Made by a program: the position numbers and the translations under genes. The notes below the pieces were generated by a model that did not search any database, had not been told where the DNA came from, and saw only the letters and a program-made list of their open reading frames with translations. A DNA stretch of 63,145 bases, counting the filler, from Hausera hauseri (taxonomy: Eukaryota): the NCBI GenBank assembly GCA_046269625.1. It is 12 parts of 12 records of this genome, joined end to end, with 100 filler letters (N's around TTAATTAATTAA, not from the genome) between each part and the next. Parts side by side here need not be neighbours in the genome. Positions count along the whole stretch, not along the records: positions 58,679 to 63,145 come from JBJURY010566449.1; 11 more parts are not named here. One strand, given 5' to 3'. Below, one piece after another: positions 5,595 through 63,145 of this stretch; within the stretch, counting starts at the first letter, position 1; every line of letters starts with the position of its first letter.

Positions 5595-6109
5595 GGTCAA
5601 AGAAAAAAAAATTGATGGTGAGGAGATGCAGAAACTGACACAAAAGTTGTCTGATGCTGAAAGGGAACTAAAAGAAAAAGACGTATTCATAGATGGATTA
5701 AGGGACAAAATTTACGAACAGTGCTGTACAATATTTCGTTTGTGCAAAGATGGTGGGAGAAAGATGCAGGCAGAGGATTTGGATAAAAAGAAAGCACACA
5801 ATGAAAGAAGGTCGATTCAGACAGTCAATCTTCAGATTAACAAAATGCAGATTCACAAAGAAGTCCAGACATTGTTCCTATTGAACAGAAACAGTGTGGA
5901 GACACAAACAATGTTTCAGACCGGTTCAATGCAGGTCAAAGAAATCTAGACGGTGGAGAAGGTAACGGTTGAACATTCATATAGCAATTATTAAATTGTG
6001 TATAAAACTTACAATTGCTATAAATGAAGTTGTAAATATTTTATTATTTGTTGTATATATATATTTTTTAATAAATTTCTTATTTTGTTTTTATTTTATG
6101 TGCATACTT

Positions 6110-23800: not shown

Positions 23801-25072
23801 GGGAATTTTGGTTGAACACAGTCTAGCCGTAACCGAATGTACTAGCTGCTTTGTTCACATCTCCAGTACCGGAATGCGGTTCCTGCGGAGGTAGAACTGG
23901 CATCGATGGGCTCGAATGATGCCAAGATAAACTGGCTTTTTCCTGATTACTTTTTCCAACGTAACAACCGGACATGAACATTTGGCCGGAAATATTATCA
24001 GACACGACGTTTACTGGCGCTTTTATAGTGTCTGCTGTGGCGTTGCACACTTTTTTGTACCTGGCGTTCTGGACAACTGCCAAATCAACCTCGTGTGGAT
24101 TCATCAACACGGTGGGATCCGTGCCCACTATATGCAGAACGGGCAGTTGAGAAAACGAATAACCCTGATTAATCGAAGTCGACTCAAGGGATTCTCGCTG
24201 TTCCTGACTCTGCAAAAGACTGCTTATTTCATTATTCGCTGCACCCGATTCACTGTCGAAACTCGACTGAGCCGGACTAAACTGTAAAACAGCGTACTGG
24301 GAGTGTTGTCGAGGCTGCACCGGAGGTGCTAACGTTAACGGGGTATGACTGTATTCGAATGCATTGTTATATTGTTTCGTCTCTGTCACATTTGATATTT
24401 TCTGAGTAAGCTTAAATCGTAACTTTATGCTACCGGTCGATTTCGACGGCGGCGGGGACTCGCACTTTGGTGACTGTGCTCATTCCGAAGAAAGCCTTAG
24501 TATTAATGGAGGACTTTTCACAACCGATGGACTGAATTTCTTATTGTTACTTGGCGACCGCAGCTGCGGAACGCGTCTTGGTTTTACTTCTGTTGATACA
24601 GTTATTGCACTGCTACGGCGATCTTCTTTTCTTGTACAGAAAATGTGCTTTGAATTTGTTTCTCTTGGCAATTTTTCGGGTTTCTGGATCGGTGGTGGCG
24701 CCAATGGCTTTTAATGCAATTGACGAGCAGGCTTTGGTGGTGTTTTTTTGATGGTAGACTCAACAATTTCTAACTGCGGTAGACGAATACGCATTTTTAA
24801 CGACTCTGTAGACTCCATCATGGCAGTTGAATAGCAGTGAATACAGATTGTCTATTACGTTTCTTGGTAGCTAAAGTCCGCAGCCAAAGAAACCTGTCCA
24901 TGGATTTGTTCACGAATTTTGTCGATTTTTCACCATATTTCTTTTTATTTCGACTCATGCGGATTACTAATTTTCAATGATAAACCACCAATTTCTTTAT
25001 ATGTACTTTTTATGCAGATAGACTTTTCTTTCCTTTCAGTCATAGCAGATGGAACTTCAATTATGCGTGAAT
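23800..25072 (-). pseudogene. Decayed fragment of an unidentified S/P-rich cellular-type protein, occupying the position of gag
   Basis: ORFs 24480-24704 and 23823-24389 share a frame, separated by single stops; no gag motifs; abuts the C-terminal half of the protease. Confidence 0.45.
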
Positions 25073-25567: not shown

Positions 25568-26013
25568 CTCTAATGTGAAAGAATGTTCACATATACCTCA
25601 CACACACATCACACTTTCTCATTTTTATCTCACGAAAGTGAAGATCAGAAAATACTGACTACCTTCATTTTAAAAGTGAGCTCAGACGCATCAGAAATAA
25701 ATAGCAAGAGATACCTATAAAATCAATGGTTTACTATACAATATTTGAGTTTATATTACAATGCTATTTTCGCTTAAAAGAATATTCACAAACGCAAACA
25801 CCGTGCATTAATTCAGTAGCTAAACTGGTGGAAATATTGTTGATGCATTGTTCAGCACGATAATTATTTTGTTCAGCAGGAAATGTGTCATTTCAAATTT
25901 ATATAAAAATTACATAAATTTAATACTTCAAAAATTAATTATATCTATTTAATTTGTTACAATATTCGTAATTTTCTATCATTATTTTTTCTCAATCACT
26001 TAGTGTTTTGTCA

Positions 26014-29000
26014 ATGAATAAGCTTGAAAAAATCCAATTTGACAGTCTTCTCAATAAGATTACTCAGGAGATTGAAAATCATTTTAATAAAACTAGTCCA
26101 AATGGAGCGAAATTTCTTTTAGCTAATGCTTTAGAATCGAAATCCGATCAGGAGTTTATTAAAAAAATTCCACCAGGAATGTCGGTAACATTTCTGAAAA
26201 ATATTTTCGATGTCACGAAACGAATGACTCCGAAGGGTGGATTTAAAGATTATGAAAAGTTGTTACGACCCAATAAAGGCGAAAATAAATCGGAAATCGT
26301 TGTATCAAATGACACTGGAAAAAATGCTGAAAAGAAAGCGTTACTGCCGTGTTTAGCATTGGAAAACACAAACATTATGGAAGTTGAAAAGGAAACTTCC
26401 GATGAATATATTAGGAATTTGAATCCGGAAACTCTGCAGCAGATTCACGACGTTTTGGAAAATGAGAAAATCAAATCATTAAAACAAAACGCTAGATCGT
26501 CTTCATCAGATCGATCACGATCCAGATCCCGTGACAGACGTGATAAAAGACACGACAGAAAACATCGAAAGAATCATCATAAATCTCGATCTAATTCACG
26601 AGACAAACATCACAACAGGCGTTCAAGAAGAAGTCGATCAAAATCTCTTGAACGAACAGATCGGTCAGAAATGAGTCGTCCGCAAGTCGGTAAAGTATAC
26701 AAAGGTTCAGTAACAAGTTTACGGCACAATGCATTGTTTGTTCGTCTGTCAGGATTTAGCAGGAATGTCGAAGGTATGGTGCACATATCAAATTTACGCA
26801 GCTATCGTGTAAGTGACGTTAAAGATGTCGTTTCAATGGGGGAGAGAGTCTACGTTAAAGTGATGTCAATCGAAAATAATCGCATCAAATTAAGTATGAA
26901 ATTGGTGGATCAGAAAACCGGCAAAGATCTGCTGGATGATATTCAACAAGATCGAATCAGAAATCCGGATAAACCAGAAATATACGGCAATAATCAGTCG
27001 AATGACCAACATCTCCACAGTCCAACGAAACGAAAGGTTCAACGAATCAGTAGTCCAGAACGATGGGAATTGCGGCAAATGGCAAGTGCCGGTGTATTGA
27101 AACTATCGGATCATCCAAACTACATTGAGGGTAACGATCTGATGGAGGAAGATGACGAATCAGACGAGGATGTTGAAATAGAGTTAGTCGAAGAAGAACC
27201 AGTATTTCTCACTGGACAAGGGAAACAAGCCATCGAATTGTCGCCAGTGAGAATCGTAAAGAATCCTGATGGTTCTCTGCAGAATGCGGCAATGATGCAG
27301 ACAGCACTCCAGAAACAACGTCGCGAAATTAAGCAGCAGGAAAAACAGAGCGAACAAATGTCGAAGGATGCCGGCCAACGATCGATGGGTAAAGATTGGC
27401 ATGATCCTGCTTCTTTGAACATGAGTAACACTGTGGATTCGAGATTCAGCAAAAGTGAAAAGTATTCCGACGTTCCCGAATGGAAGAAATACGTGTCGAG
27501 TGGCGTTGGCGGTCGAGGTGCATCAACACTGATGTTGAATAAGTCGATACTCGAACAGCGTCAGAGTCTACCAATTTACAAATTGCGTGATGAATTATTA
27601 ATGGCCATAGCAGTAAAGAACGTGTTAGTCGTTCTCGGAGAAACTGGTAGTGGGAAAACGACTCAAATCACTCAGTATATTGCCGAAGCCGGATTGTCAT
27701 CCAACGGAAAGATTGCTTGCACTCAGCCGAGAAGAGTTGCAGCGAAATCTGTTGCTAAACGTGTAGCAGATGAATTTGGCTGTCTGCTTGGTCAAGAAGT
27801 CGGCTACACTATTCGATTTGAAGATATGACGACACCGGACACTAAAATTAAATATATGACTGATGGAATGTTGCTACGGGAGTGTTTAATAGATCCAGAA
27901 TTGAAACAATATTCTGTAATCATGCTCGACGAAGCACACGAACGGACGATCCATACTGATGTTCTTTTTGGTCTTTTGAAGAAAGCATCTGCCGAACGGA
28001 ACGACTTAAAACTAATTGTTACATCGGCAACACTAAATTCTGTGAAATTCTCTGAATATTTCTTCAGTGCGCCAATATTCCGTATTCCTGGTCGAACGTA
28101 CGAGGTCGAAGTGCTGTACAGTATTGAGCCGCAACAAGATTATCTGGAGGCAAGTCTCAATACGGTGATGCACATCCATCTCACAGAACCACCCGGTGAT
28201 ATTCTACTGTTTCTTACTGGACAGGAAGAAATTGACACGTGTTGCGAGATCATATTCAATCGAATTAAAGCACTCGGACCAGAATGCCCCGAACTGATTA
28301 TTTTACCTGTATATTCGGCAATGCCATCAGAACATCAGTCGCGTATATTTGATCCGGCCCCACCAAACGCGCGTAAATTGGTGATCGCGACCAACATAGC
28401 AGAAACAAGTCTAACAATTGATGGAATATACTACGTAATCGACCCTGGATTTGTTAAACAGAAAGTGTACAATAGCAAATCTGGAATGGATCAACTCATC
28501 GTCACTCCCATTTCTCAAGCGCAGGCTGATCAGAGAAAAGGTCGTGCAGGTCGAACTGGCCCAGGAAAATGTTTTCGACTGTACACTGAGCGAGCATTCA
28601 TGGACGAAATGCTGCCGAATAACGTTCCAGAAATTCAACGTACAAACTTAGCGAGCACTGTACTGCAGTTGAAAGCAATGGGAATTAATGATTTGCTGAC
28701 ATTTGACTTTATGGACGCTCCCCCGACCCAGACATTGGTAAAGGCAATGACCGAATTACACGCATTATCCGCACTGGATGATGAAGGACTCCTGACAAAA
28801 TTGGGCAGAAAGATGGCAGAATTTCCCTTGGAGCCAATGTTGTCAAAGATGTTAATAATGTCTGTTCATCTCGGCTGCAGTGAGGAAATACTAACGATCG
28901 TCTCCATGCTTAGTGTCGAGCCAGCCTTCTATCGTCCGAAGGACAAGGCCGATGCAGCGGATCAGAAAAAGGCCAAATTTAATCAACCGGAAGGTGATCA

Positions 29001-29556
29001 TATCACATTACTCGCTGTTTACAATGCGTGGAAGAACAGCAAATTCAGCACACCATGGTGCTACGACAATTTCATACAGTCCAGGTCCTTAAAGCACGCG
29101 CAGGACGTTCGTAAGCAACTTCTAGGTATCATGGACAGGTATGGTTTAAAAGTGATTAGCTGCGGGAAAAACACAGGGCTCATCCAAAAGGCAATTGTGT
29201 CAGGTTTCTTCAGAAATGCAGCAAGGAAAGATCCACAGGAAGGTTATCGGACGCTCGTTGACCAGCAAGTTGTTCACATCCATCCTTCGAGCTCATTGTT
29301 CCATCGTCAGCCCGATTGGGTCATGTTCCACGAACTTATTCTTACATCAAAGGAATACATGCGAGAAGTTACGACCATTGATCCTAAATGGTTAGTGGAG
29401 TTTGCTCCAAAGTTTTTCAAATTCGCTGATCCAACGAAACTTAGTCAGTCCAAGAAATCTCAGAAGATTGAACCATTGTACAATCGTTTTGAAGATAAAG
29501 ATGCTTGGCGAATCTCTAGAGTGCCTAAAACGTTTCATGTCAAAACTACATTTTGA
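26014..29556 (+). CDS. DHX8: Pre-mRNA splicing DEAH-box RNA helicase DHX8/PRP22, intact and intronless
   Basis: Uninterrupted 1180-aa ORF from ATG 26014: RS domain, S1 domain (GKVYKG..EGMVHIS), [40 protein letters not shown]2, and C-terminal [25 protein letters not shown] at 29574-29579. Confidence 0.97.
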
Positions 29557-29716: not shown

Positions 29717-32700
29717 CGTATTTGTGTACGAAATACAATGTCCCTAGAAAACTCCTCATATCGGTAATAGTAGTTGGCAACGTCACAATTTTTATTTGTT
29801 GTCAGCGATTAGGCTGGGGCGAATGCCCTTGGGTAGTAATTATGTGGCCTAAGAAGTTGACGCGTTTTTGGAAGAAATTGCATTTGGCAAAATTAACTTG
29901 CAGGTTGCTTTGATACAATTTGTGGAAAATAATCCTAAGGCGCTCATGATGTTGGATGGAGCTGGAAGCGACTAATATGTCATCTATGTACGGGTGAGCA
30001 AAATCAAGACCAGAAAGAACGGTGTCAATGTGACGCTGAAAAGTCTGAGATGCGCTACGAAGGGTGAAAGGCATGAAGATGTTTTCATAAAGATCAAATG
30101 GTGTGATGACAGCAGTTTTTGGAATGTCATCAGGTACAAGAGGAATTTGATAATAGGCTTTGTGCAGATCAATGGTAGAATAGGTATTGGTGTTGTTGAG
30201 GCTATGAAGAATACCTTTAATGAGTGATAGTGTATAGGCATCTGTAATAGTTAGACTGTTTAATTGTCGATAGTCGCCACATGGCCTATAGGAACCATCT
30301 TTCTTTACCACTACATGAAGAGAAGCCCACAGTGAATTCGATCTCCGAATGATGCCAGACCTTTCCAGTTTATTAAGTTCCTGTTGCACAGCTTTACGCC
30401 TGCGTGACTACAAAGGTCTAACCTTCTTTTTGATCGGCCTTTAATGCTCTGTTACTATGTGATGATAAGTTGTAGATGGAGGCTTGAAGTTGACGTCCCT
30501 TTTAACTATGCAGAAGCAAGACGTTGTGAAGTATGATGTAAGATTGGAGTCCAGAGACAAGAATGAATGAGGCATATCATTAGAGAGAACAGCTCCAGTG
30601 ATTGACGAAAAGCAACTGGCATAGCTACTGTAGAAGCCTAATTTGGATTTTTGTTTTAGAATAGATTTATGATTGTCGTTCATAATGGAAATATTGGCGA
30701 CTTTATCGGGTTTTTTATAGATGACGAAGCGTTTAACATATTCACAGATGAGTGTAATGAATTGCTTGCTAAATTGTTTACGAGATACATGTTTGGAGTT
30801 GCAATCGAGTTCCTGCTTAAAAGACAGCCATATTTGCAATCGACCAATAAATCATGTGCGGCAAGGAAATCTGAGCCTATTATTGGAGATTTAATATTGG
30901 TCACGTGGAACTTCCAGACAAATTTATCTGGCAAGTTGGCGAAAGTGAAAGTCAGTTCCGCGGTTCCTGCAACATGCAACGGTTGTCCACTGGCAGTGAA
31001 AAGCGGAGGACAAGAAATTATTGTGGATGTAGGGGTGAAGGACAACCGAAGGAGCGAAAAGGCAGCTCCTATATGTGTTAGGAATTCGATATTTGAGGTA
31101 TCTCTGCATAACAGTACAGCTTTCAACTGAAAGACTGCCGAGACGATGTTGAAACGGCCAGAAGATTGAGCGATATTGCCTGTTCCAGAATGTGCCGTAA
31201 AATATGGCGATATTATTAGTTTTTTGAAGTTTTTGGAGAAAAAGAAGAAGAAGAAGAAAAGAGAGGAGATTTATCGCTGTAATGTTTACAACCAGGTACA
31301 CATGATCTAGCCTGTGACTAACTTATTGTGGTAGACACAAATAGTGTTGTTCACAGTGTACAGTTCGCTGTAGAACCGACAATCCAAAAAGCACTTCCTA
31401 GCATCCCTTCGAAATTGCGTGTGATAGAAACAAGTCATGCGTCCGCTAGATAAAATGGATCGAGCAAAGTGTTTGAAAATGCTTCTCTCCTTGAATGTCT
31501 GGTATCACTTCGTCGAGGCCCATTAAGATTATTTAGTTTGGTAGTAATGACCAAAATCGACTGCTGTAACCTGTCAAACTGTTGCTGCATCATTTACAAT
31601 TGTTCAGTAAAAAATGTTATGTCTGTAGTTGGAACACATGTGGTTGCGGCCGCAATAGGGAGAGAACTGTTGGTATGAAGAATCTCAAAGGATCTGTCAG
31701 CCATTATTGCCAGTTTTTCGATAGCAATGGACTCGTCGACAACGGTGAGCAAGACTCTGATTGAGGTAGGCAAAGGCGATAAGAAATAACAGTGAATTAA
31801 ATCAGCCTTATTCGTAGGTGTCACCCCTAGCGCGCTGAGCTGCAAAATGGCCGTTGGGAGAAAGTTGGATGGCTTTTGGTTCCCTATCGCGTGGTCATTA
31901 AAATACTTTTGTATTATGTTGTCAATCGAAGAATCCGTGACATGAAGTACAGTTTCACAAAGTGTCTCGTAAGGTGTCGAGGATTGTAACAGCTCGGAGA
32001 TATTATTAATCTGCTGCTTGACGTTGGCAGGCAGAAGAATTAAAAGGCTATTGGCTCGCACAAAAAATCTGTGATGTTGTGCGATTTTAGCCACTGTTGG
32101 TGGAATTGGAGCCATGGTTTGCTAGAGTTATGTTTGTCGAGAAAGAATTCAACACAAGGTAAATTTAACCAACCTCGTGATTGTTGGGAGTGGCAAACGA
32201 TAGATGTTGCCTGTATTCGTGGATTTATCATCCGAGCAGGACGGATTTGGATCCGATCCACCCCGGAGGTGAAAATGGAGCATAAGGTGGATGATTGGAC
32301 GTTCATGGGATACAAAAGACAAAAGTGAGTCGACGGAATGTACAGTGATACTTCGATGTGTAAAATAGAATTTGGCAGTGTCGAGTAAGGAGGACAGAGA
32401 GGTGTGTAATAGCTGCGCCGTGAAATTGAGTGGCGCCTTAATGGTCGTTGTGTTTATTGTTATTGAAGATAAGGAATGAGAGTTGCGGCGAAGCAATTCC
32501 AGGAGAATGGTAAAATGTAAAAGGAGCTTGTGCGGTTTGCTTCCGTGTTAACAAAAGATATGGGCATGCAGTTGGGATAGCGGTGGCAAGTGATGATTGG
32601 AATAAAGGAGTATCCAAAAATAGTAAGCTGAAAAACATTTTGAAGTGAAGGAGGATGAGCTTTGAAGGATTTGTAAATGCAAAGAACATGGCCGCACCGG
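29717..32700 (-). mobile_element. Decayed CsRn1-like gypsy element (family G1), 5' half: leader, gag, protease, RT
   Basis: Gag PYETL..IGNQKPS..LPTSIR..LAIMAD and CHCC motif CFYHTQFRRDARKCFLDC; protease LFTASG..PIIGSDFL; RT PCGDYRQLN, YIDDILVAS. Confidence 0.92.
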
Positions 32701-32719
32701 TGGACATAAATCAGTAAAA

Positions 32720-33430
32720 AGAACCTCACCCACCTGAGTTTGAATATCTAAGTCCTGGATGTAGAATTTGGACACAACTGAAGTGTTTTCCCCAGTGAAC
32801 CATCCTTCTTGATCAGATGAACACCGGTCTCGTAGACACCTCTCGAATATTGGTTCTGAGGTTTTCGATAGCATTTCAATTAGACTTTTGCTGAGTATTT
32901 AGATTTCCAAGTTGATATCTTGTTTTCGAGTCATCGTTTCGAATTTCTTAGCAGTCTTCTCCAATTCTTTGTTCTGTTCAGCCTTTTTTCTTTTGCAATT
33001 CATCGAGCCACATGTCATACCTTTTCAGTTCATGATCCTCGTCATCAACATTCACATTTCCCGATCCAATGTCATTATCTTCTACAGATACGTCATCGAC
33101 ATCGGCTTTGTTCATTGGATGTGAAACTGATTCAACAGACGATGTATCAGCTGGATGTGAATCGAACAAAGTTGTTTGATAATCGTACTCGTTGTATTCC
33201 GCAGGTTTATTCTCTTGATCAACCAAATAAAACAACAACGAATCACTCGACAAGTTAACTTCAAAATACAAATTATTCATCGATTCATCCTTTTTTCTTC
33301 ACCATCGGCAAACGACAATATTTTTGTCTGTCTGCTCACAAAACGTACGTTTTTCTTCAACGATTTCTTTATCGGTAGACAGTCTGTTACACTTTCTTTA
33401 CAAACCATGTTAAGAAGCGACGCTGAAGTT
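32720..33430 (-). pseudogene. Second unidentified cellular-type gene fragment (acidic region plus coiled coil) joined to the supervillin fragment
   Basis: ORF 32978-33280 lies in the supervillin frame after one TAA but lacks gelsolin-repeat motifs; continues via a frameshift towards ~32720. Confidence 0.4.
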
Positions 33431-33434
33431 TAAT

Positions 33435-35620
33435 TCGAGTAAATGATGAGATGCACGATTCCACGGTCAAATACAATGGCAGGACTTTCTTCATTTTGTT
33501 TGACTCTGATTTGAGAAACTATCTTTATCGAGTTCTATAGTCAATAAGGCACTAGCAGTTTTTTTAGTAACACTCGTTTTAATTCCTTGCCAGAAGAAAA
33601 ATTATGATGAAACATTTCCAGAACCTTGTTTCCGATATCGTCCAAGAGATTTTAATTCATATTACCAACGAATAATATACGCGACTTCACTACAGAATTG
33701 ACCCAAGCTGTCATTTGACAACCGAACAGCGTCATTATCTGTAATGTGCCAAGCTTCGATCATTTTCGTTTCAACATCAAATTCCCGTAATATTCCGTCT
33801 TCAATGATTTTCCAATAACCACCTCGTCCGACATTCTTTTCAACAAAAAATAAATTAACGCATTGATGAGGATTTTTTAAAAAACTACAAAGATCCAAGG
33901 GTTCAAGGATGATGTCAACTTTTTGAGCTTTCGTGTCCAAGGCAGATTTACTAGCAAATCTAATTAACTTTGATGTTTCAGGCCAATCCACAAATTTTTT
34001 CTTAAGTAAAGCAGTTTCCCCCTTTTCAGAAAGTAGTCCAACAACAACCCAGTTTGGCCTTGGATCATTTTTTTGGGATCCAAGTCAGGGTCTTATTCTG
34101 ATAGATGATTAAAAGGATGTACAGAAGAATTTTCATAATTACATCCTCGATCAAAAAGTTGTCTTAGAAAGTCTTTGCCCGTTAATTTATCGCTTTGACT
34201 AGCCTTTATACCGCGCCATAAATATAATTCGGTGCCAAAATCGAAAATTAACACTTCATCCTCCTTTAAAATAGAATATTTTGGTGATGTTCCCCAAAAT
34301 TCATTAATGGGCAAAAGTTGATTTCCCGAAACAGTGAATACCATATTTGTTCGTTTAATTAGTTGTTTATACAATTCGTCTTCATCGCAGTCGCCAGGCA
34401 ATTTTGCAGACTGCACCCGGTCATACTTAAGAGCCTTCCAAAATTCAATTACACCGGTATTGTTATTTGCATCTGTGGATTTCACAACAACCGGCTTATC
34501 AACTGCAGATCGATAATTCAGTTCTTCCCTTTTAGCAGTCCATGATGCTAGTTCATGGGCCTTATTAATTTCAATTATATTGGCAACGTCGCCTTCCCAA
34601 ATAAAAATACGGCTTTCTGTCAGCAGCAAATAACAATCTCCAATATTCATGGAAGAAGCCGAAGGTGTAACGAGCCTTACTTGGATTTTCTTTCGACCTT
34701 TGACAGAAATCAACATCAAATCTTTATATGGACTAATAAATTGTTCAAAAGATTTAATACTTTCAGTTCTGCGCAATTTTACTTGTGAAGAATCCTATTT
34801 ACTTGAAAGACCAGCTACAGCTTCTTCTCATAACCAGCTTTAGCTTGCATGTTTTCAACTTTATATCGTTTGCATTCTCGTTTGGCAACATCCGTCACGT
34901 TCATCATACTCCAACTTAATATCTGTTCTTTCATTTAGCTTTTTGATTGAATTTTTTCCCTGAGGACCTTTTTGATGTCGAGTTGGTTTTGTGGGCCGCT
35001 TCGTTAGTTTTAAATTAATTTCCGAATTGAGAAAAATATCAAAACCATCTGATGTCACTGTATTATTAAATGAAGACTGAGCTTGGTCAAATTGAGGAAA
35101 AAAATTTGAAAGACTCATCGTCGATTTTTGGTGTGGTAACCTTCTGAGAGTGACCTGTTTGTAGAATTTCTTCCTTTTTACATTCTTGAGGGCTTTTGAC
35201 GTTCTGGTTATTATTAGTCAGAGTAGCACCAAGATCTATAGAAATATTCGAGACTAGAGTAAATTTAGGAAGAATCCTCATAACCTCATCAGATCTGGTT
35301 AGACGTGTAACATAACTATTGTGTAATATATTTTCTGATATATTACTGCCATGATAAGTTTGTCTGTCAATATTTTTCCACTTGTTTTCACCTGATTTCA
35401 TCAAAGCAATTCGCTGAACGATTGATAACAAAGAATCGTCCTTTTCTGTTTCTGTACATTCCATGTCGATTTTGGTTATTGGTTGACTGATATGATGTCG
35501 TTTTGTGTATTGTTCATTGGGTAACGTTTCCTTTTCAGTTGAACCAGTTTTAGTTTTATTCTGACACCAGTGTCGTTTTGATAACATGAGTATTAATTCC
35601 ATTAGAAAAAATTCCAAAAG
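33435..35620 (-). pseudogene. SVIL: Supervillin-like (villin/gelsolin family) decayed, 3'-truncated copy
   Basis: SIVQRIALMKSGENKW, PYKDLMLISVKGRKKIQVRLV, GDCYLLL, FDFGTELYLWRG, RPNW..ETALLKKKFVDW, GQFCSEVAYIIRW, FFWQG..SALLTIELD; multiple stops and frameshifts; no introns in this span. Confidence 0.88.
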
Positions 35621-36150
35621 ANNNNNNNNNNTAAAACATTTTGTATTTGACTGTCAAAATTTTCAATTATTAAATCATTAAAAGAAATCAATTTTTTAAA
35701 CCTTCCATTCATACATACATTCAAACTAATATAACTATATACATCAAATATACATAAAGAAAAAGTTGTAGACAAAACAGAAACGTCCATGTTTTATGCA
35801 CTGGTAATTATCGTTTCCCTCCAAAATTAAAATATTAAATTTATCGTTTTATCAGTATTAGACCGGTAAATATGTGCATGTTTTTTTTTGATTATTTCTG
35901 CGGATGATTTACGTGCTGAATATTTATTCGTCAATGGGCCTAACATACCGTCATTTTTATCATCAAAGTCGAATTTCCGTCTCATTACCAGATTTCCACG
36001 TCTTACCCAGATTCGATTCGTCATCGTTTTTCGGACCCGGTGATTTTCTAGCACCAAGCTGACATCCACTGTCTCCAAATGACTTTCTTGGCAAACTCGG
36101 ATTTACCGACGACCGAAATGACGTCGAATAATCCAAGTTCACTAAAGATG

Positions 36151-36634
36151 ATTTCCGCTTTAAAACACGGTGGGAGAAATTCTCTCACCGACTCGACAGC
36201 CTCGAACAGTGCAGCCACGTACCAGGCACCACATCACCCCCCCCCGTGGCAAGACGAAGACTATGAACAGAAGGAAATGAATGGAAATTATAGTAGGAAA
36301 AAGAATAGCTTATACCTATTCGGCTTTGGTACGTGTTAGACGTTGGACTCCATCTATGAACTTCTCCCTCTTGTAAGTGCCGAGCGTCACATTACGTGAT
36401 CTGTTAGATGTTGCTAGTACTTGTGGATTTGTTCGAGGGAGAGATACTGTGGATTTTGTAATACTGGAAGATGCTTCATGAAGAGTTGAAAGTGGAGAGG
36501 AAGCTGAAAACGGAAAAGGATGACGCGAAGAAGGCGATAATGGCGATTGGAGCGATTCGTCCAATGACGGTGAAAGGAGTAGTAGGTGTGCAGGCGATGA
36601 TGGCGAAGTAAGTGGTGAATGAGCAGTAAACGAT
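36151..36634 (-). mobile_element. 3' end of another G1 gypsy copy: pol tail, PPT (36234-36246), LTR head from 36233
   Basis: Tail peptide RNVTLGTYKREKFIDGVQRL is homologous to RRVTFSKYSREKSVQGVQRL at ~60150-60230; the plus strand gcaccacatcaccccc..gtggca nearly matches 19814-19840. Confidence 0.85.
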
Positions 36635-41391: not shown

Positions 41392-42450
41392 GTCTGATTT
41401 TGCCTTCCTGCTGCATTAATTTGTATAATGTATTCTGTCTGAGGTTTTAATGTGTTACATTCTACTTGCCGTGTATTCTGTATAAGTTTTACGTTTTGTC
41501 TGTCATATAAGGTTCGACAGTTTATTTCTACATCGTAGTTTAATCGTTTCTCAACAAAGAACACTTTTTATACGGATGAATCGAATATCTGATAGGTATG
41601 TCTTCGATTTTTACTTTAGATATATTGGTCATTGTAACAATTCGGGCGGTTGACCTTCTCATCGGGGTTTTCGTTGGAATTTCCCAAATTCTATTTTCTG
41701 GGTGGTAGATTCGTAGTTGTGTGCCTGGTTGATTAAGCCGTATCTCGCATAAGTCAAATCTTATTTTAAATTCTTAATTCACGGGTATTTTACAACATGG
41801 ATGTGGTACACCTGCACGAATGGAACAGTATTCTATTTTTGGAGTTGGTCCTATTACTGCCTCAAACACGATACTGATTTCGCGACTGACGGTTAGTTCC
41901 GTCCGAGTGTTTACTTGAATACATTGTCTTTTCTTATTCACATAGATTTCCTGGATATTTTCGTTTAGCAGTCTTATGTCTGGGTCAGTGGGTCGCAATA
42001 TTTCTTTTAGTTTTACTTCGTGATGCCCATTCCAATCAGGAATGATTAGTTGAAACTGTGGTTTTACTTCATAAAATTTAGATAATTTCGGTAGATACAG
42101 ATAATAGGTCAGATTATAAGTACGTCCGGGATCTATGTCGCAATTCTTTGTTTCTTTTGATACTACATCTTCTAAGACAATTTGGATCCTTCCAGAATTC
42201 CGATGTGGTTTCCGTGTTTTAAATCCAACGCATGTCGAGTTGGGTGAGTAATAGTGGATCCTTATTGCTTGTAGTCGTCTTACATCCTCTTGTTCTTGAT
42301 TTTCTTCGACCATTGATTTCTTTTCCGTTTCACTTTTTCGAACTCCATAACTGTTGTTCCACCATTTAGCTTGTGTTCTTGGAATCTAGGAGGCAATTAG
42401 CGATAGTGCTAAAATTATTTGGATATACGATATTGGTCTATTGATTATGG
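41392..42450 (-). pseudogene. Signal-peptide-like segment plus FN3-like/beta-rich region in frame with integrase (env-position ORF)
   Basis: IQIILALSLIAS*IPRTQA-KWW continues in the integrase frame into ORF 41774-42313; motifs DIDPGRTYNLT and LKPQTEYIIQINA resemble the FN3 LxPxTxY strand. Confidence 0.5.
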
Positions 42451-45400
42451 AGGATGTCTTCGTTTTCTTTTTATCTTGATGCGAGCTAGATCGCAAATTG
42501 TAACGTCTTTCTGGCTTTATTTCTGTTTTAACAACTCTTTGAATAGATACTACCTCTTCTTTGCCATTTTTATTAATGTACACCGTAGTTGGTGTGGTTC
42601 GAATAACTTCATAAGGTCCTCGTCCGGTACGGGTAAGTTTTAATGAGGTACCTTTCTTTGCGACTGGGTAGTGTACGTAGACCCAGTTTCCTTTTTCTAA
42701 ATCGTGAGGTTTGGCCTTTTTATCGTATTGCTTCTTAAACTGTTCTTGGTACTCAAGAGTGAGCGTCTTGGCTATATCCCAACATTTTTGTAATCTGGTT
42801 TGTAAAACTTCTGCGAAATTGGGTTCTAAATCTTCTGGACTTGCATGATACGGAGTCATCCCTAAGTCCGTAGGCAAAATCGCTTCACGTCCATACATCA
42901 TGAAGAATGGTGTAAATCCTGTAGCGGGATGTGGGGTTGTGTTAATAGCAAATTGCGTTCCTTCTAAAAATTCGTCCCAGTCCTTCTGATCCTTTGCTAC
43001 TACGGTTGATAAAACTCGTATAACTGTTGCGTTCATACGTTCGACCATTCCATTACACTGGGGGTGGTAAGCGGTAGTGGTTAGTCGTTCAATTTCAAAG
43101 ATTTTAGAAATTTTGTCAAATAATTCGCTTGTAAAATTTCTTCCTCTATCGGTCAATATTTGATCGGGTGGTCCATATCTGCAGATGATTTTCCTTACTA
43201 CTGTGTCTTCTAGTGTTTCCGCCTTTTGATCGATTAGTGCGATTAATTTCAGTGTGTTAGACGATCTACGCATGTCAAAATATATTTGTTATTTTTGAGT
43301 TGTAGGTAAAGGTCCTACTATATCCAAAGACATGGCTTGCATAAGTCTGACTGGTACGTTGATAGGTTTTAATTCTGCTATATAGTTTTTTACTTTTCTT
43401 TGTTTCGTTGCACAGACTTCACAAGCGTCCACCCAATTTTTTAGATCGATATATACGCTTGGCCAGTAATACTTATTTAATATCCTTTCTAATGTTTTCT
43501 TCCACGACATATGTCCAGCTAAATGCGAATCGTGTTCAGCCATTAATACATCCGTTCGTAATCCCTTGGGAATAACTACCAGTTTCCGCCCCTTTCGTTC
43601 GTAATATAGAATATTATCTTGATTCGATGCATAGTATTTATGCCCGTGTCTTTGTAAGTGTTTCTTAGCTGACGTCCTTTTGGCATTTCATCTTGCTCGG
43701 CGAATTTAACTATTTGTTGGATGACTTTATCGTTAGCTTGTTCTGAAGAAATTTTAATTGTCTTATTCAATGTTAAAGTCTGTTGTCGTTCTACTAATTC
43801 TTCGAGCTGGTCTTTCTTCATAGTCGTAATTGAACTTGTCTGTTTTAAGTCTTGATAAAGCATCTGTGTCAATATGTTTGCTTCCAGGTATATATTGAAA
43901 TTCGGTGTTATATCGGGAGATTTCCTCAATCCACTGATTTAATCTACATGTCGAGTTATTGGCCCGTCCTTTTAACGTTGTAACAGCTTTGTGATTGGTA
44001 ACCATAATAATTTTTTATCCGTAGACAGACATTGAAATGTCTCAAGGCTTCTTTTACGGCTAGTGTCTCTAATTCAGTGACTGAATAGTTTTTCTCAGCT
44101 TTCTTAAGCGATCGTCCTCCGTATGCAATTGGATGCTCCAATTCTTCGTCTTCTCGTTTTTGATCTAATTCGTAACCAATTCCTTCCTTACTTGCGTCTG
44201 TCTTAATTATAAATGGTAAATTGAAATCCGTGCATCTTAACACTGGTTCACTGGTTAAAATTTTCTTCATTTCGTCGAATGCTTTCTGTTCAACATCGGC
44301 CCATTTCCATTTGATGCCTTTTTTCAATAGCCGATATAACAATGCATATATTTTCGAATTGTCTGGTACGTAGGTGGCATAATATCCGCATAAGCCTAAC
44401 CAATGTCTTAATTCTTTCTAATGTTGGGGTTCCATGCAGTCTGATACTTTGTTTAATAAGGATTTATCTGGTTTTGATCCTCCTTCTCGAACTATATGTC
44501 TCAAATAAAATACAGCATTTTGTGCCCATTTACATTTCTTTGGTTTCAGTTTTAATCCTACCTGTTCCAACCTCATAAGAGTATCTTTGATGTCCTTTAG
44601 GTGTTCTTCTTCTGTTCTTGACGCTATCATTACATCGTCTAAATACGCAAACGCATGATCTAGTCCCATAAGCATCTTGTTCATCATTCTAGTAAAAATA
44701 GCTAGGCCGGTTGTTATACCAAAGGGCACGACGGTAAATTCATAAACTCCATCGTGCGTTTTAAATTCTGTCTTATAACGATCATCTTCTTCGATTTCCA
44801 CTTGCCAATATACGGATTGTAAATCCAGTGTGGTAAACAATTTTGCTGTTGATAATCTGTCTAGAGCTTCCTTTACTGATGGTAGTGGAAATGAATCCTT
44901 CATCATCAGTGTATTTAGGGCTCGGTAATCTATACAGAATCGATGTTTTGCAGTACCTTTTTTCTTGACCATGAGTATTGGTGAGTACCAAGATCTGTAG
45001 CTTGGTCGCATTATGTCGGCCTTTAACTTACGTTCTACTTCTTTTGTTATTTCTGGCCTTAACGAATGCGGCGGTGGGTACCATTTTGGTATCTTTCGCT
45101 CTTCCAAATCAGTTTCATCATTGGAGCCAGGTTTCTTTTTTAGTGGAATGGTTAGTCTTAAGGTTTTCGCTGTGCCTATGTCTTCTTCATTTTGGGCAAT
45201 AATTGACTTATATTTGCATAGTAGTTCGTAAAATTGACAATATGCTTCTGGTGAAAACTTTGTTTCGACATGAGGTGGAAATTCAGCATATTTATATGGT
45301 TTCTCTTCGATTGTTATTGCTGACACTTTATAAGTATAACCCAATGTAGTATTGGCATACAACTTTACGGAAGTTGGTACGTTATTTACTAGTGTGGCTG

Positions 45401-46000
45401 GCACTTTTTCTGGCGTTACTGTTGTCAAAATGTTACTAAGTATGATATTTGGATTGACGTCTTCTTGTGGTTCAAAATACACTGGTTGGTCGTCTTCTTC
45501 GCGAATCTGAGCATAAATTAGCATTTCAGTTCTAGGTGGAATATGTTCATCGACAGGAATCCACACTTCTTCCTGTTTTTTTTCTTTCATTGTCTTAATT
45601 CCTTTTACTGGTCCGAGTTCGATTAGTTTTCCAGTTTGTAAATTTATTGCTATATTGGGTAATTGCTTTAGTATATCGCAACCTAATACTACATCGTCGG
45701 TTAGTTGGTCCATTATGGCAAACTCGTATTGGATAATCTGACCAATTAATTGAACTAGGGGACTTTGGTTTTTATTCTTGTCCGAAGGCTCCTATGCTGC
45801 CTGGATCTGATGATGATACTGGCTGCAGCTGTTTTCGTAATGTCGGCGGTATCGATTCTAACTTTATAAATGATTTCTCTGATCCGATGTCTATTAGGGC
45901 ATAGACTTCTCAGTCTTCTATGATAACATTTGTGAAAGGCCTTCCTTCCATGACTGACTCATAACAGCTCGACACGTCCTTTGGCCGCTTAATCAAAGAA
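42386..46000 (-). mobile_element. Decayed Ty3/gypsy pol (protease, RT, RNase H, integrase) of a family distinct from G1
   Basis: VYALIDIGS, RFCIDYRALN, YLDDVMI, IKTDAS, ELETLAV, HHCC (H..GH..CEVC), TDRGRNF, AYHPQCNGMVER, GPY. Confidence 0.93.
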
Positions 46001-46589
46001 ATTCTATATCCGTTTATTGTTATCTCTGGTGATAACTTCTCGGTCAGCTGTTTCAGTTCTTCGTTGGGGTATAAATCGTTAACTGCCATGTTATTTGTGT
46101 TGGTTCTAATTAACGTTTCTTTTACTATTAGATTTTGGAATGACTTCACGCCTTGTGTTCCCCAGACTGTCGATCTGGTCTCTATATTGCGAGCTATCCT
46201 CGGCGAGTACAGTATCCTATGCTCATCTTCTGCTCGTCTTTGATTAGTGATCTGCATTTTTTAATACTCCGCATTGTTTTGTTCCTTTATAAGGATCTTC
46301 ATAGTTAAAAGGTTTCTGACAGAATGCTGATCTATATGACACTATAGATGTTTTGTCGCAATCCTCGTATATTGAAGCCATTGGCGGCATTATGGGCAAG
46401 GGTGTCTTGGTTACGGAATACATTTTGTGTCTATTTGGTCCAAGGATTACTTCTCCTCCCTTAGGCTCATCATTATCTGAATTATTTCTTCGCGTCATTG
46501 GTTTCTTAACCTTGCGTTTCAGTCGAAATATGGGTCTTGCTCATCGTTTGTAGTTATAATAACCGACGTGAAGTTCGACGTCATTCTCC

Positions 46590-48229
46590 CATCGATTTTC
46601 TTCATAAGATTTAAACATTTTGCCGAATGGAGTGATAATTGCGGTTAAGATTTTGCAGGAAAACCCTGTTAATGTAAATATTTTTTACCCATTTATAACC
46701 GCTTGAATTACCGCTTTTACTAGTTGTACTACGAAATAGATTGCTAAAACCCCTTATGCAGCTTGTCCAAAAATTAAAAATCTTCCCCATATTTTGTAGA
46801 ATATGTCTGTGGTTACCCGTTGGTAATGGTTCGCACCAAGTAAGGATTCCCATTTAGCCTGATATCGAGTATCATCAACTACTGATGCCATAGCCCGGTT
46901 TAATTCGTGTGTCCGCTGTCGTAGAAAGGCAAGAAATTATCAGAAAGCTTCAATCTCTTTTGGCCTATAAATACCCTTTTGGGATGCATCCTGAAATTTG
47001 TCATCCGTGATTTCTCTTGCCCAATTCGTTCCAGTTACTTTTTAAGGAATGATAGTGACACCTGCATTTGGTAAGCTAACCCAATCTGTTTCGCTACGCC
47101 TAAACATTGGTTCACCCAGACTTGCCTTACAATCATTTAAAATGGTTGGTTGTGTTGCATTATCAAGCAACACTCTAGTGAGAAGCATGGCTAGACGTGG
47201 AGTATTCTGGTAAATTACAGGAAGCTCCTGTATTCATCGTTTCTCTTCGACATTGATTGGTATATCTTTTTTTTACATTCATATGTCAGTAGAACCTCGA
47301 CAGTAACTCGGCCAAAAATTCCTTCACTCATGGGAAGGATCGGTGAGGCTAACTCAGGATTCGCATAAATAAGGGCTAATTTTGTCATAATAATTTCCGT
47401 GTCTAACTTGCAGTCATTAGTTATCATTTTTTGGTATAGTTCGGCTATTCCGACTTGTCCTTTATAATAAAAATAATCGTCTCGGTTTTTCAGATAGACT
47501 TCTATTTGGATGTCTTGCGTTTCCAAGTTGTATGTTTTTGCGTTTATCTCCGTTTCTGCGACGAAGAACGCTCCGTAGTTAGTGGTGAACATTACTAAGT
47601 CGCAGTGTGAAATCATTTCCTTTTTTATGAATTTCAGTCCGTGTTGATCAGAGATTAGTATCGTAGGTGTATGATGTTCGGATACGTCTTTACGTGCTCT
47701 CGAACTGATGTCGGATTTATTTATGTATCGTTTTCCGGTAGTTTCATTAAATTTTAGTTTTTTGATCTTAATAAAATTACAAGCCTTTCCGGTGGGCGGT
47801 TCCCATATGACTACAGAACTTCTGAAGGCACAGGTTCAGTCTTGCATGTGACATTTTTGATTCTCAGTATATAGCTTAGTGACACTATGGTACATTACTT
47901 TTTGGACTCGCATCTCCGATTCGTAAAAGTTTACTACTACTACGTTTGCTTCCAATCCTTTTCCGATATCGTATTCCGTTCCACTACAATGCCCGTCATG
48001 CATATCCAGCCTTCCGGCAACGATCTTATATGCTCTGATTATTTTTCCGGGGTGCATTTCTAATTCCATGCTATTCCATTTCAGTCTTCCGGTTTCTCGA
48101 GCTTGTTTGCAATGTTGTCTTTCCAAATTCATTGGAATTGGAAGGGTTGTTAGTTTAATTATCGAGGAGTGTCCGTGCATTAACCCACAGTGAAAAATAC
48201 TACGAGATCGTCTCAACATACATTCCATG
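46590..48229 (-). pseudogene. Chuvirus-like / herpes gB-type (class III) envelope glycoprotein, decayed, upstream of pol
   Basis: Cys pattern HCG..HSS..C, G.C.G, VVIWE..C, LYQKMITNDC, G..GRV..EVL..EC, GIY, and membrane region WGRFLIFGQAA.GVLAIYFVVQLVKAVI typical of chuviral and retroelement glycoproteins. Confidence 0.75.
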
Positions 48230-58500: not shown

Positions 58501-58678
58501 TTGCACACTGGCACAGTGGCACATACTAGCGGCAGCGACTGCTGTAGTAACTGCTTGTTGCTGCTCTGTTACTGTGCGNNNNNNNNNNNNNNNNNNNNNN
58601 NNNNNNNNNNNNNNNNNNNNNNTTAATTAATTAANNNNNNNNNNNNNNNNNNNNNNNNNNNNNNNNNNNNNNNNNNNN

Positions 58679-59852
58679 TCGCAACAGTTCAATAAGATTA
58701 TTTCGAAATTTCCTGCTACTTGCTGCATATACAAACACATTTAAAAACAAACTGATTTCCACGAAGAAATTAGAAAACAAGTCTGGATAAACGTAAAACG
58801 TTTGATTTTTCACCAGCATCAAAATGCACGTTATGATAAATGTTGGTAATTGTAAAAAACCAAAAACGAACGATAACATCATGACTAAGTGTGTCGTGTG
58901 GTTTCGTGATTTTGTCACTGTTAAACGCCGTTTGCTCACTGGATGTTTTAAACACTTGCAATTTGCTTTGGAATTATTCGTATCGCGTTTCCTCGAATTA
59001 CCGCGTGCTATTCGAAAAATAGATTTTCTTTGTTAACTAATTTTAATCCAAAGAATTGACGTTGCCATGATTATTAAAACAACGGGAATACAGGATTGAA
59101 ACACAAATAATCAATAAACAGTAAAACTGTTGTACAGATCATAACTTCCGAGAAAATAGTCAAGAATTACGTAATTCAATATATTGACGCAAATTATTGC
59201 TTTGTAGCGTAACGTTTTCATAGTTGATAATCCGAACGATAACAGAATCAAAGTCATCAGTATGGATTTTAAACTTTTCCTGCTAAGAAATAATTTTCAT
59301 CGAAGAGCTAATGGCCTTAATACAATTTCACACTGGGATAATGAAATCAGTACAAACGTCCGATTTCTGGTTGAGAACATAGCATTAATAAAAGTGTGAA
59401 TTATTGTTGTGCATAATGATGAAACTGGATAACGATGTCTTTCAACTTTCAAAAGTATTAACAAAGATTCGATAAATATTATCATCTGGAGCAGTACTTC
59501 AGCCAAACTTATTGTAACCAAATTAAAATGAACTGCTGCATTGTCAATAACTTGTCGAAAAAATACAATAAGTGATAGTCCCTTTAGAAATGAAAATGAA
59601 CGTTTATCAATTTCTGACTGATACCGAAAATGAAGTCCAGATGCAATTGGTGTTAAACTTTAAAAATGGTGTAAACTTTTCTTCAGTATATGAATATTCA
59701 TCGTCCAATAATACATCGTCCAGTGATACGTCGTTCAATATTCCATCGTCCAATAAATCCATTAAATAATTTTCATTTGAATACAGTTCGGTTGCTCCTA
59801 ATTCATCGAAATCTTCCGGTTGGAAGGTAAATCCGGTCAAGTCACTTGTCAT
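58679..59852 (-). pseudogene. Intronless decayed class A (rhodopsin-like, FMRFamide/peptide-receptor-like) GPCR
   Basis: Acidic N-terminus from ATG 59852, hydrophobic helices, TM3 RNRTFVLISLSQCEIVLRPL, TM5 IPVVLII, TM6 FGFLQLP, TM7 LNVFVY..SRKFR; several stops and one frameshift. Confidence 0.82.
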
Positions 59853-59948
59853 TATCTGTCTTTTTTTTAAATACGCGAAAGTTTTAAAGTTTAAAATTGC
59901 GGATCACAATTAAAATCAAAGGATCAATTGTTTTTGATTCGACAAGCC

Positions 59949-62900
59949 ATTGCCGCTTTAAAGCGGAAAACCGGGGGCCCGCCTATGCGCCCCACGCTCC
60001 CGCAGCAGAAAACCCGGCCGTGCCCAACCGAATGGGCCGGAGGGTGACGATCGATGCGGGCTCCACATACCCCCTCCAATAGCAATGTTAAAACTATAAA
60101 GAATAAAAGATAGAGAGAAAAACCGCAAAACGAACATGTGTTTGTGTCAGTTGCGCTTAGTGTGTATAAGACGTTGAACACCTTGAACTGATTTTTCCCT
60201 ACTATACTTGCTGAATGTGACTCTGCGTGTTGTGTGTTTATGCAATGTGTTTGTTTGCAGAGGTTGAGGCTGGGGAAAAATTGTTAGATTTTGGTGTAGG
60301 TGGTGTGTTGTGCAAAGATAAGTCAGAATAAAGAGAAGAAGAAAACGAAAAAGGAAGAGGGATTGCCAAAGACAAATGGTTAAAGGCATTGAAAAGATTG
60401 TTAGAAGGCGAAGGAGTGATGAAAAATGTAGTGGCGGATAAAGGAAGAAAGAAAAGAGTCGGAGTGGAGATTGGAATTGTGTTGAGTGAAAGAGTGGAAG
60501 AAAAAGATTATCCAGAAGGAGTCGTATGAATAGAAGTAGAAAGTGTAGAAAATGGCGGAGCATGACTAGGCGTAGAAGTGGAAGGTGGAAATGATGTAGC
60601 AATAGATGTAGGAATAAAAGGGAGTGGAGGCGTGAGAAAAGAAGTTGACGTGTCGGTTGATAAGGTGTCGTTGACAAAGAAAGCGGGCTTTAAGTTGGCG
60701 ATGTGTACTGTAAGGTCTTTGCCGTCTTTAGAGATGATGGCGTTGTGTGAGTGCAGCTGTATCAGTTTATAAGGCCCCAGGTACCGCGGCTGAAAACTCC
60801 AAGGCGCTTGATTCTTTAGCCATACGAATTTAGCCTTATACAAATCTTCGGGTAAGTATGTTTTGTCTGTGTGAAGTATCCTTCAAAACGAATCTTTGCT
60901 GACCTCGACGAAGTGATTTTGCGCCGCCCGTATCGTCTCATCTGTGGGAGTGTCATCTAGGGCGGTTAGTTCGAATAATGATCGGACAGGAGCTCCGAGT
61001 AAGGTTTTATCAGGTGAGCATCCTGTAGAAGTGGACGGAGTGTTCCGCCAGCCGAGCAGAACGAACGGAAGAAGATTCGTCCAACTACTGTTGAACTCTG
61101 CGAGGATTCGTAGTGACGTTTTCAGTGTTCGGTGGAAACATTCTAGAAGGCCATTCGATTGGAGATGATAAGGTGCAGTATGAATGTGGTGGATCCCCAA
61201 TCGGTTAACAAGGGATTAAAACAGGTTAGACTCAAACTGTAGACCTTGGTCCGTGATGATGAAACGAGGTGATCCAAACCTGCTAATCCATGTGCGAATG
61301 AAAACGTCAGATATGATGTCGGTGTTTGTGCTCCACAAAGGGATGGCTTCTGGCCATCGGAAGGAACGGTCCATCATGGTGAGAATGAATTGATGTCCGT
61401 TGTCTGGAGGAAGAGGGCAAAAGATGTCAATATGCACGGACTCGAAACGCGATGTGCAGGGAAAGTGGAATAGTGGTTTGGTGGAAACGTTTAGCTGTTT
61501 TGTATTTTTGGCAAGCCACACACTCCTTAACCCATGCCTGCACATCAGAACGCATTGGCGGCCATATTACTTGTTGATGGAGTAGACGAAAGGTGGCTTT
61601 AGCACCAGGATGGTGTAGTGAATGCACGCTGTGAAAAGCTTGCCTTTGCAATGATGGTGCTAGAATTATTACGGAATGGCCTGGTTTGTAGGTGTCTAAA
61701 GCCACCCCGTCAACGATTGTGCAAGTCTTAAAAGACTTAAGCATGTCTCGAGGTGGCTGGTTCTGTTGAAGTTGGTCTTGTGTAAAGATCGGTGAAAAGT
61801 TAATCGAACCAACCGACCTAGATAAAAAATCAGCAACTAAATTGTTAACCCCGTTGATATGTTTAATATCAAAGTTAAATGCCGATAAGTATGACATTTG
61901 TCCTTCTTGGCGTGTGTAAGGGTGTTTCATGGCCATGATGTTAAGTAAAGGCTTGTGATCCGTTTGTAGAGTGAAATGACGAGCTACGAGTATATGTCAG
62001 AAATGCTTTAAAGCGAGAACGATGGCCAATAGTTTACGATCGAACGTGGAATATCTAGTTTCAGGTGCTGCTAGCTTGCGAGAGAAAAATTCATATGGTT
62101 GATTTTTTCCTTTGTTGATCTGGTGGAGTACAGTGCCTACAGAAGTGGTTGAAGAGTCTGTAGTAAGGATGAGTTATGCATCAGGCTTGGGAAAAGCTAG
62201 AATATCGACAGTTTTGATGCCATCGAGTAGCTTATCGAATTTTTCAACCAATTCAGGTGTCTACTAGATTGGCTGGTGTTTTTTGCCGCCGCTTAGGTTT
62301 GCGAATGGAGCTGTCAATTCGGAGCAATAGGGTACATATTTATGTACAAAGTGTAGTGTACCTAGGAAGCTGCGCATTTCGGTGGTTGTACGTGGTAACT
62401 GGATGTTTTTAAGAGCTTCGATGCAGTCCAATTGGGGAGAATGACCGTCTGGTGTAATAATGTGGCCTAAAAGGTTAATGCGCTTTTTGAAAAAATCGAA
62501 TTTGTCGAAATTAATCTGGAGATTATGATGGTTAAGATGTTGGAATATTGCACGAAAGTGTTCTTCGTGTTGTTTGGCAGAATATCATCGATTTAAGGGT
62601 GTGCAAACGGGAAGTCTGAAAGAATTGAATCGATGTGGCGCTGAAAAGTTTGTGCAGCATTCTGCAAACCGAATGGCATAAAGATGTATTCATAGAGACT
62701 AAAAGGAGTAGTTACTGCAGTTTTTTCTATGTCTTCGGGTGCTATCGGTATTTGATGGTATGCTTTAGGTAAATCAATGGTTGAATAGATGGTGGTTGAA
62801 TTAAGACAATGCAAAATATCTTTTATGAGTGGTAAATGGTCCGCATCCATAATAGTCAAGTTATTAAGTTGTCGGTAGTCACCGCATTGTCTAAAAGTAC

Positions 62901-63145
62901 TGTCCTTTTTTGGACAACGTGTAACGGTGATGATCAAGGAGATTTGGAACGGCGTACTATTACGGAACGTTCTAACTCAAAAAAATCGGCTTCTGCGGCC
63001 TGTCTACGACGAGGTGACAGAGGCCGTACCTTTTGACGTATTAAACGTTGATGCTGTGTGACTATATAGTGTAAAGTACTGTTTGCGGTAGTAAACGTAC
63101 GGTCTTTTTTAAGTACGCGTGGATATGATGTGTTGACGAATTTCT
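59949..63145 (-). mobile_element. Decayed CsRn1-like gypsy element (family G1): RT, RNase H, integrase, tail, PPT, LTR head
   Basis: CGDYRQLN, MPFGLQNAAQTFQR, HHPG..CVAC, TDQGLQFES, APYHLQSNG, GPY; PPT GGAGGGGGTA (60068-60077) then TGTGGAGC (from 60067). Confidence 0.93.

Follow-up and report, generated by a model that had tools for sequence, protein, structure and literature searches.

A two-gene dead chimera behind a decayed CsRn1-like Gypsy element of Hausera hauseri, probably in the position of its long terminal repeat

Introduction

Retroposition mediated by long terminal repeat (LTR) elements is reported to join partial pieces of animal host genes, sometimes from at least two genes, to the LTR elements themselves. 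Published chimeras include a piece of 5' untranslated region (5' UTR) joined to a coding piece of another gene, and in the BLASTOPIA family the switch back to the element takes place at a fixed site (PMC5131818, for the portion of that source used here). Receptors of the Srf/w type, a G protein-coupled receptor (GPCR) class, are described as the most expanded planarian family, with 199 genes (part of PMC4862687). Here we analyse a stretch of 63,145 nucleotides (nt) from Hausera hauseri (assembly GCA_046269625.1; "the window" throughout), in which a decayed Gypsy-type element is followed by the pieces of two host genes.

The window consists of 12 short contigs joined through 11 artificial linkers, each comprising N44, 12 nt and N44; one of these (58579-58678) precedes the last contig (58679-63145, JBJURY010566449.1), in which the locus lies with all of its features on the minus strand. 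In the direction of transcription, remnants of pol are followed by a polypurine tract, by the first part, or head, of an LTR, and then by host sequence ("cargo") comprising the front of one gene (piece A, from gene A) fused to a receptor lacking its own front (piece B). With moderate confidence, we interpret the locus as a decayed element bearing a dead two-gene chimera in the position of its LTR, made by reverse transcriptase (RT) switching templates between co-packaged messenger RNAs (mRNAs).

Results

A shared LTR head is followed by different host sequences

The decayed pol gene (60527-63145) retains the order RT, RNase H, integrase and is cut by the end of the window; Pfam matches include RVT_1 (3.5e-14), RT_RNaseH_2 (3.4e-25), Integrase_H2C2 (1.1e-16) and rve (6e-05), and the region is 68% identical to a second copy at 20783-23138. 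Downstream lie a C/T-rich 3' untranslated part (60078-60526), included in a 75% match between 59963-60526 and 19719-20278, a polypurine tract (60068-60077), and a GC-rich LTR head with a TGTGG start (59951-60067, TG at 60067). Two further head ends, at 19821 and 36233, also occur on the minus strand of the window, each preceded by a counterpart of the polypurine tract. The CsRN1 5' att motif TGTGGYG follows the tract with six of seven letters matched in the 60067 head and all seven in both sister heads, and the element as a whole is classed, from its sequence, as CsRn1-like. GC content per 25 nt amounts to 0.56-0.80 in the head down to 59951 and to 0.20-0.32 beyond it. None of the three heads folds better than its shuffles (z -0.68, 0.25 and -0.54), metagenome scans for the element came back empty, and the window contains no tRNA gene.

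To locate the end of the head we relied on a public sequencing run, X1, which contains 0.36 of the stretch's words and is perhaps not independent of the source of the window. Its contigs total 1,212 million letters, its depth is not copy number, and the results below rest on six of 15 loose ends and eight of 98 pieces listed, after a filter that drops records. Over the element the depth is in the thousands or higher, compared with 8-48 for the cargo. Within the transition it is 213.6 at 59945, averages 123.6 over 59894-59938 and has dropped to 18.5 by 59894; at 59922 two X1 contigs depart from the shared head into other AT-rich sequence. The sequence shared by the family thus ends at about 59915-59922. 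An earlier reading of this locus, made from the sequence alone (the sequence-only reading), had placed the end of the head at about 59950, followed by a leader of about 95 nt; given the depth step and the loose end, some 30 nt of that supposed leader are common to many copies and about 69 nt are left. The common AT-rich stretch (59922-59950, with an ACA ending at 59929) either belongs to the element or stems from an earlier capture that the copies have in common.

The junction consequently moves about 30 nt downstream, and the TATA-like box is lost as its landmark. The analysis confirmed the polypurine tract (60077-60068), the TG start, the GC-rich head and the TTTAAA box itself (59957-59962), which sits in a 14-nt palindrome (59953-59966). 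The use made of the box in the sequence-only reading fares differently, as the motif is present in this copy but not conserved: all 17 X1 contigs counted carry another letter at 59962 and 16 do so at 59960, the zinc-finger sister copy described below also departs from TTTAAA, and the palindrome, perfect behind 60067, is not kept in the sister heads, the third of which does have TTTAAA. Being variable, the box cannot serve to fix the U3/R boundary. Between the shared stretch and the ATG at 59852 remains a low-copy AT-rich leader (59853-59921) of 69 nt, with a GC content of 0.25, no ATG and an upstream in-frame stop; it is likely to be the 5' UTR of gene A.

All three heads are followed by differing host-type sequence. 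Behind the head at 19821 (19821-18883, minus strand) a zinc-finger gene in decay (C2H2 type, Pfam 4.2e-11) runs to the end of its contig; its frame is open from the head onward, with a GC content of 0.43, an in-frame ATG at 19640 and no AT-rich leader, so that its start can be read either way. The third copy begins with coding-like sequence (GC content 0.47), which gives way to stops and an AT-rich tail, then to a gelsolin-repeat gene and further pieces. This mosaic of about 3.4 kb (36233-32700, minus strand, in contig 29717-36634) spans from the head to the gag leader of the next element and comprises a coding end with its AT-rich tail, the gelsolin-repeat/supervillin-like gene, and acidic and coiled-coil-like pieces; a flip in strand skew near 32700 precedes gag. 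The identifiable cargo genes (GPCR, zinc finger and gelsolin-repeat) all lie on the strand of their element. That X1 contigs leave a shared head at 59922, and that three heads lead into three different cargos, supports the placement of the cargo in the LTR position.

The best-surviving alternative, which we consider unlikely, is an ordinary insertion, in which an element whose head is a complete 139-nt LTR (TG at 60067 to CA at 59929) landed within the 5' UTR of gene A or close to it, and a deletion or rearrangement of the DNA later joined that gene to the GPCR. Consistent with this, the ACA ends at position 139 in the 60067 copy and, for the zinc-finger copy, at position 141, shared sequence stops about 7-14 nt from the ACA, and Mag C LTRs average 174 nt (according to part of PMC3601003). 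A complete LTR is nevertheless difficult to reconcile with what these heads lack: AATAAA is missing within 260 nt of any of the three in the window, contrary to the CsRn1 pattern, and a 3' att motif is missing within 260 nt of the 60067 head and within 190 nt of all three, the single att-like match among the sister heads falling at 197. The zinc-finger copy has nine occurrences of ACA itself in its first 260 nt, and the third copy has none at the corresponding position. Nor is there a second head before gag in contig 29717-36634, where local scores of 20-24 compare with null means of 20-23 and a positive control of 81. Finally, an insertion requires a second event to produce the chimera, and again one for the mosaic of that contig.

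The cargo fuses the front of one gene to a headless receptor

Piece B (58679-59581, minus strand) is a rhodopsin-class, Srw-like GPCR extending from the end of the first transmembrane helix (TM1) to helix 8, as delineated by phmmer and tblastn. At a threshold of E<=0.001, a full phmmer scan recovered 23 relatives, with a top E of 1.7e-59 and a top identity of 46%, a result far beyond chance that bears out the sequence-only reading of a same-strand, decayed seven-transmembrane (7TM) frame extending across TM7 and helix 8, with an ATG at 59852. Eleven of 14 relatives scanned against Pfam match something, ten of them Srw or 7tm_1, weakly, and the TM6-7 part of piece B itself matches Pfam Srw at 5.5e-4. 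The full phmmer scan alone succeeded; whole-frame GPCR searches of Pfam, PDB and a word-indexed protein collection gave no match, and metagenome scans for GPCR relatives produced 324 pattern matches and no confirmed one. Among nine relatives looked up, the one bearing a name belongs to Macrostomum lignano. The frame is interrupted by stops at 59299, 59113 and 59035, and its 3' end at 58679 is the contig end beside the linker, not a biological boundary.

This receptor had been read as near full length, with its start at ATG 59852. Closer examination places the beginning of GPCR homology at about 59585, inside TM1: in tblastn with the four closest relatives, alignments open at their residues 46-59 (window 59590-59578) and run to the contig end. 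In ten full-length relatives the TM1 asparagine falls between residues 41 and 57, preceded by an N-terminus that is not acidic and has an almost invariant cysteine; this cysteine is absent from the window reading. In a leave-one-out comparison against a GPCR family profile, the relatives' own N-termini added 16.6-39.0 bits in ten of ten cases, and five readings of the window's upstream DNA added -0.3 to 1.7; the 89 codons behind the proposed start therefore gain less than 2 bits, and in the window copy the ATG stands in another frame than the GPCR. Two joined readings are equalled by 43 and 56 of 200 shuffles, respectively, and TM1 hydropathy is 0.72-1.03 in the window versus 1.89-2.57 in the relatives. 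With neither an N-terminal gain nor a hydrophobic TM1, ATG 59852 and the leader belong to a second gene. Piece B itself reads as a truncated GPCR pseudogene without its N-terminus and most of TM1.

Piece A (59582-59852, minus strand), delimited through this profile test, comprises about 89 codons with an acidic N-terminus and one frame break near 59653. Aspartate and glutamate make up 0.27 of its first 66 residues, compared with 0.00-0.10 of the first 50 residues in the 23 GPCR relatives. It carries a Rel-like motif (59609-59632, FRYQSE core at 59629-59612). The DNA-recognition loop of Rel/NF-kB proteins has the consensus RFRYXCEG, with serine at position 6 in Relish and in one Nematostella allele (PMC2751831; a consensus is also given in PMC7060202; both sources in part), and the motif, chosen after the fact, agrees at five of seven defined positions. 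The core arises in five of 20000 shuffles; six-frame translation of the window yields it at one of 126,286 positions, and 154,354 protein residues compared do not contain it. Neither Pfam nor PDB returns a Rel homology domain for piece A, in which at most about 30 domain residues would be present; seven divergent Rel-domain genes are described in Schmidtea (part of PMC13563047). By this motif, gene A is possibly a Rel-family gene, at about even odds or a little better, and, to judge from its composition and the profile test, piece A is not a GPCR whether or not that label holds. A PDB match to FGF13 (E 0.47) was discarded as chance. Also rejected was a 43-nt GT..AG intron (59624-59582) as the missing link between the two pieces: its removal aligns the frames, does not rescue TM1 and yields a score like that of shuffles.

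The cargo occurs in X1 in up to three versions per place, which could be alleles, the two LTRs of one element, or paralogues. Differences at 59594 and 59618 have equal depth, from which we infer a contig spanning 59550-59649, across the join of A and B, and hence that the join exists beyond the assembly of the window. In X1 record 6, five extra letters in piece A bring the ATG into frame with the GPCR. Other versions contain deletions of 2, 4 and 74 nt in the GPCR; deletions that break the frame are carried by three versions, and the sole X1 contig listed over 59174-59353 is frame-broken. Nine of 27 single-letter differences in the GPCR are synonymous, against a fraction of 0.25 expected without selection (p=0.23; 40 of 68 differences listed), and the differences look neutral. 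The sequence-only reading had offered the locus as a route for the expansion of GPCR families; a copy without most of TM1, with three stops, frame-broken X1 versions and neutral-looking differences does not sustain that proposal.

A chimera of this kind could also have arisen by DNA-level capture, in which break repair or another transposon patched host fragments behind the head with no RNA step; we regard this as quite unlikely. The genome appears intron-poor, on the evidence of the DHX8 frame described below, so that uninterrupted cargo is no proof of an RNA route, and the 43-nt GT..AG stretch ends at the join of A and B. Six such pairs lie within 126 nt, however, that stretch being one of them, and it overlaps the motif that looks conserved. 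Against DNA capture, moreover, whatever cargo could be identified is of coding type and shares the strand of the element, when mostly non-coding filler would be expected from a genome as large as the X1 total suggests. Highly improbable is the capture, at the U3/R boundary, of a single near-full-length GPCR mRNA that brought along its own 5' UTR and an unusually long acidic N-terminus broken by a frameshift or the 43-nt intron, for although ATG, leader and 7TM frame are contiguous, record 6 or removal of the GT..AG stretch joins the frames, and MAFFT aligns one proline of piece A with the TM1 proline, both joined readings behave like shuffles, TM1 is not hydrophobic and the N-terminal cysteine is missing.

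Template switching as the proposed origin

Under the template-switching interpretation, RT would, during minus-strand synthesis, have started on the 3' side of the GPCR mRNA, copied it as far as TM1 and then switched to the mRNA of gene A about 89 codons past its start, the join of A and B presumably being in frame at first. It would next have run to the 5' end of the gene A mRNA and jumped back to the element RNA near 59922, whereby the mosaic would become part of the LTR, behind a head of roughly 145 nt. The 5'-UTR-like piece behind the head fits a forced jump at an mRNA 5' end. A tentative and less likely extension is that the family keeps only this fixed head of about 145 nt and rebuilds the rest of its LTR by hops from mRNA to mRNA, with a fixed return site used once RT reaches the 5' end of an mRNA and runs off. 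Were this so, the present copy would be the fossil of an originally in-frame fusion of a Rel N-terminus and a GPCR with its own 5' UTR, set behind the promoter of the element and replicated along with the LTR, and the family would constitute an exon-shuffling machine supplying a promoter and a start codon to each chimera.

Several observations weigh against an origin by template switching. With the far end of the cargo lost at the contig end, neither an LTR tail nor a second LTR nor a target duplication is observed. The data searched yielded no parent gene, and among the X1 pieces listed there is neither an intact GPCR version nor a parent diverging at either junction; these listings are filtered and partial, so they do not prove that a parent is lacking. 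Piece A has no match in Pfam, PDB or the protein collection, and a comparison with longer proteins yielded 27 candidates, none at E<=10. Of the sequence-only proposal that the cargo opens at an mRNA 5' end, the 69-nt 5'-UTR-like piece stands; the mRNA is not that of the GPCR, and such a piece is clear behind the head in only one of three copies. The sense orientation of three out of three cargo genes carries by itself a p of 0.125. In the related element of contig 29717-36634, the candidate primer-binding site at about 32699 matches at eight of 12 positions, a level reached by 173 of 500 shuffles, and was rejected as chance-level. Since an intact DHX8 gene of the window is likewise uninterrupted, missing introns are weak evidence of an RNA origin.

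Other loci in the window

The DHX8/PRP22 gene (25972-29556, plus strand) is an intact, uninterrupted frame of 1194 codons with no LTR head upstream, indicative of a genome poor in introns or, alternatively, of a retrogene that has stayed intact; its best named matches of ordinary length are trematode proteins at 57-60% identity, a small margin over the 56-58% of other animals. Together with the Macrostomum lignano relative of piece B, these matches suggest that the host is probably a flatworm. The element following the mosaic of contig 29717-36634, with 66% RT identity to that at 60527-63145, encodes a Gag with a CHCC signature (31328-31594); the gag and primer-binding site of the element at 60527-63145 would lie beyond the end of the window. 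At 25072-23469 (minus strand), in the contig of the zinc-finger copy, non-element coding-like sequence adjoins an RT region in the place of gag and protease and includes a 218-codon open frame (23823-24479), possibly a classical internal capture. Another decayed Gypsy element (6100-9821, plus strand) has, before gag, a GC-richer stretch of about 280 nt that contains TATATA and closes in ACA; it resembles the ordinary LTR of another family and is a possible control for the cargo family. Gypsy-type pol remnants also occur at 41392-48229 (minus strand), in several broken frames, together with pieces that match the Pfam family of Monjiviricetes fusion glycoproteins (47218-47835 and 47839-48228; E 1.3e-08 and 2.8e-10). 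Two pairs of related repeats were identified, 9922-14539/36735-41291 (86% identical) and 2413-4713/49126-53535 (78%), the frames of which look like possible remnants of a Polinton-type DNA polymerase B.

Discussion

The headless, dead receptor copy has little import for GPCR biology, with no sign of new working receptors. Its relevance lies in the structure of the cargo, which can be a mosaic less than 350 nt from the junction, so that the identity of the gene at the far end is unusable for reading the 5' junction. If capture at a fixed site within the LTR proved general, it would represent a gene-shuffling route by which each new insertion carries the fragments twice, once at either end, behind a promoter. 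A search of titles and abstract openings, in which subscription journals are thinly covered, returned no matching paper by title for capture into the LTR itself and none describing retroposed flatworm GPCRs; the supplement of PMC5131818, which holds junction sequences, may include LTR-located cases.

As to the host genes, the locus resembles the flatworm Srf/w receptors in that relatives of piece B weakly match Srw/7tm_1 and include one from Macrostomum lignano (PMC4862687, in part). That source presents Srw proteins as chemoreceptor-like and related to FMRFamide receptors; piece B is a truncated pseudogene. With the CsRn1 clade, as presented in the portions of PMC2582038 and PMC3601003 used here, the element shares its RT-RNase H-integrase order, TGTGG start and polypurine tract, and a related element the CHCC Gag. 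It differs in that published LTRs of the clade average 330 nt and carry AATAAA and a 3' att motif, neither of which lies behind the 60067 head, and the tRNA-Trp primer site of CsRn1 has only a chance-level match, in the related element of contig 29717-36634.

The position of the host sequence, 3' of the element and on the same strand, recalls 3' read-through transduction, except that read-through takes contiguous flanking DNA and here two unrelated genes are fused within coding sequence (PMC13317346, in part). Closer are the LTR-mediated retrocopies of Tan et al. 2016, the cargo being likewise made of partial pieces from two genes. Of the LTR-element sequence that flanks such cargo on both sides, one side is present and the other falls at the contig end. 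Unlike the Drosophila retrocopies, as described in the available portion of PMC5131818, the cargo replaces no internal open reading frames and follows pol, the polypurine tract and the start of the LTR. Judged by these analogies, the locus would appear to represent a known accident, template switching, in a less usual place, the position of the LTR.

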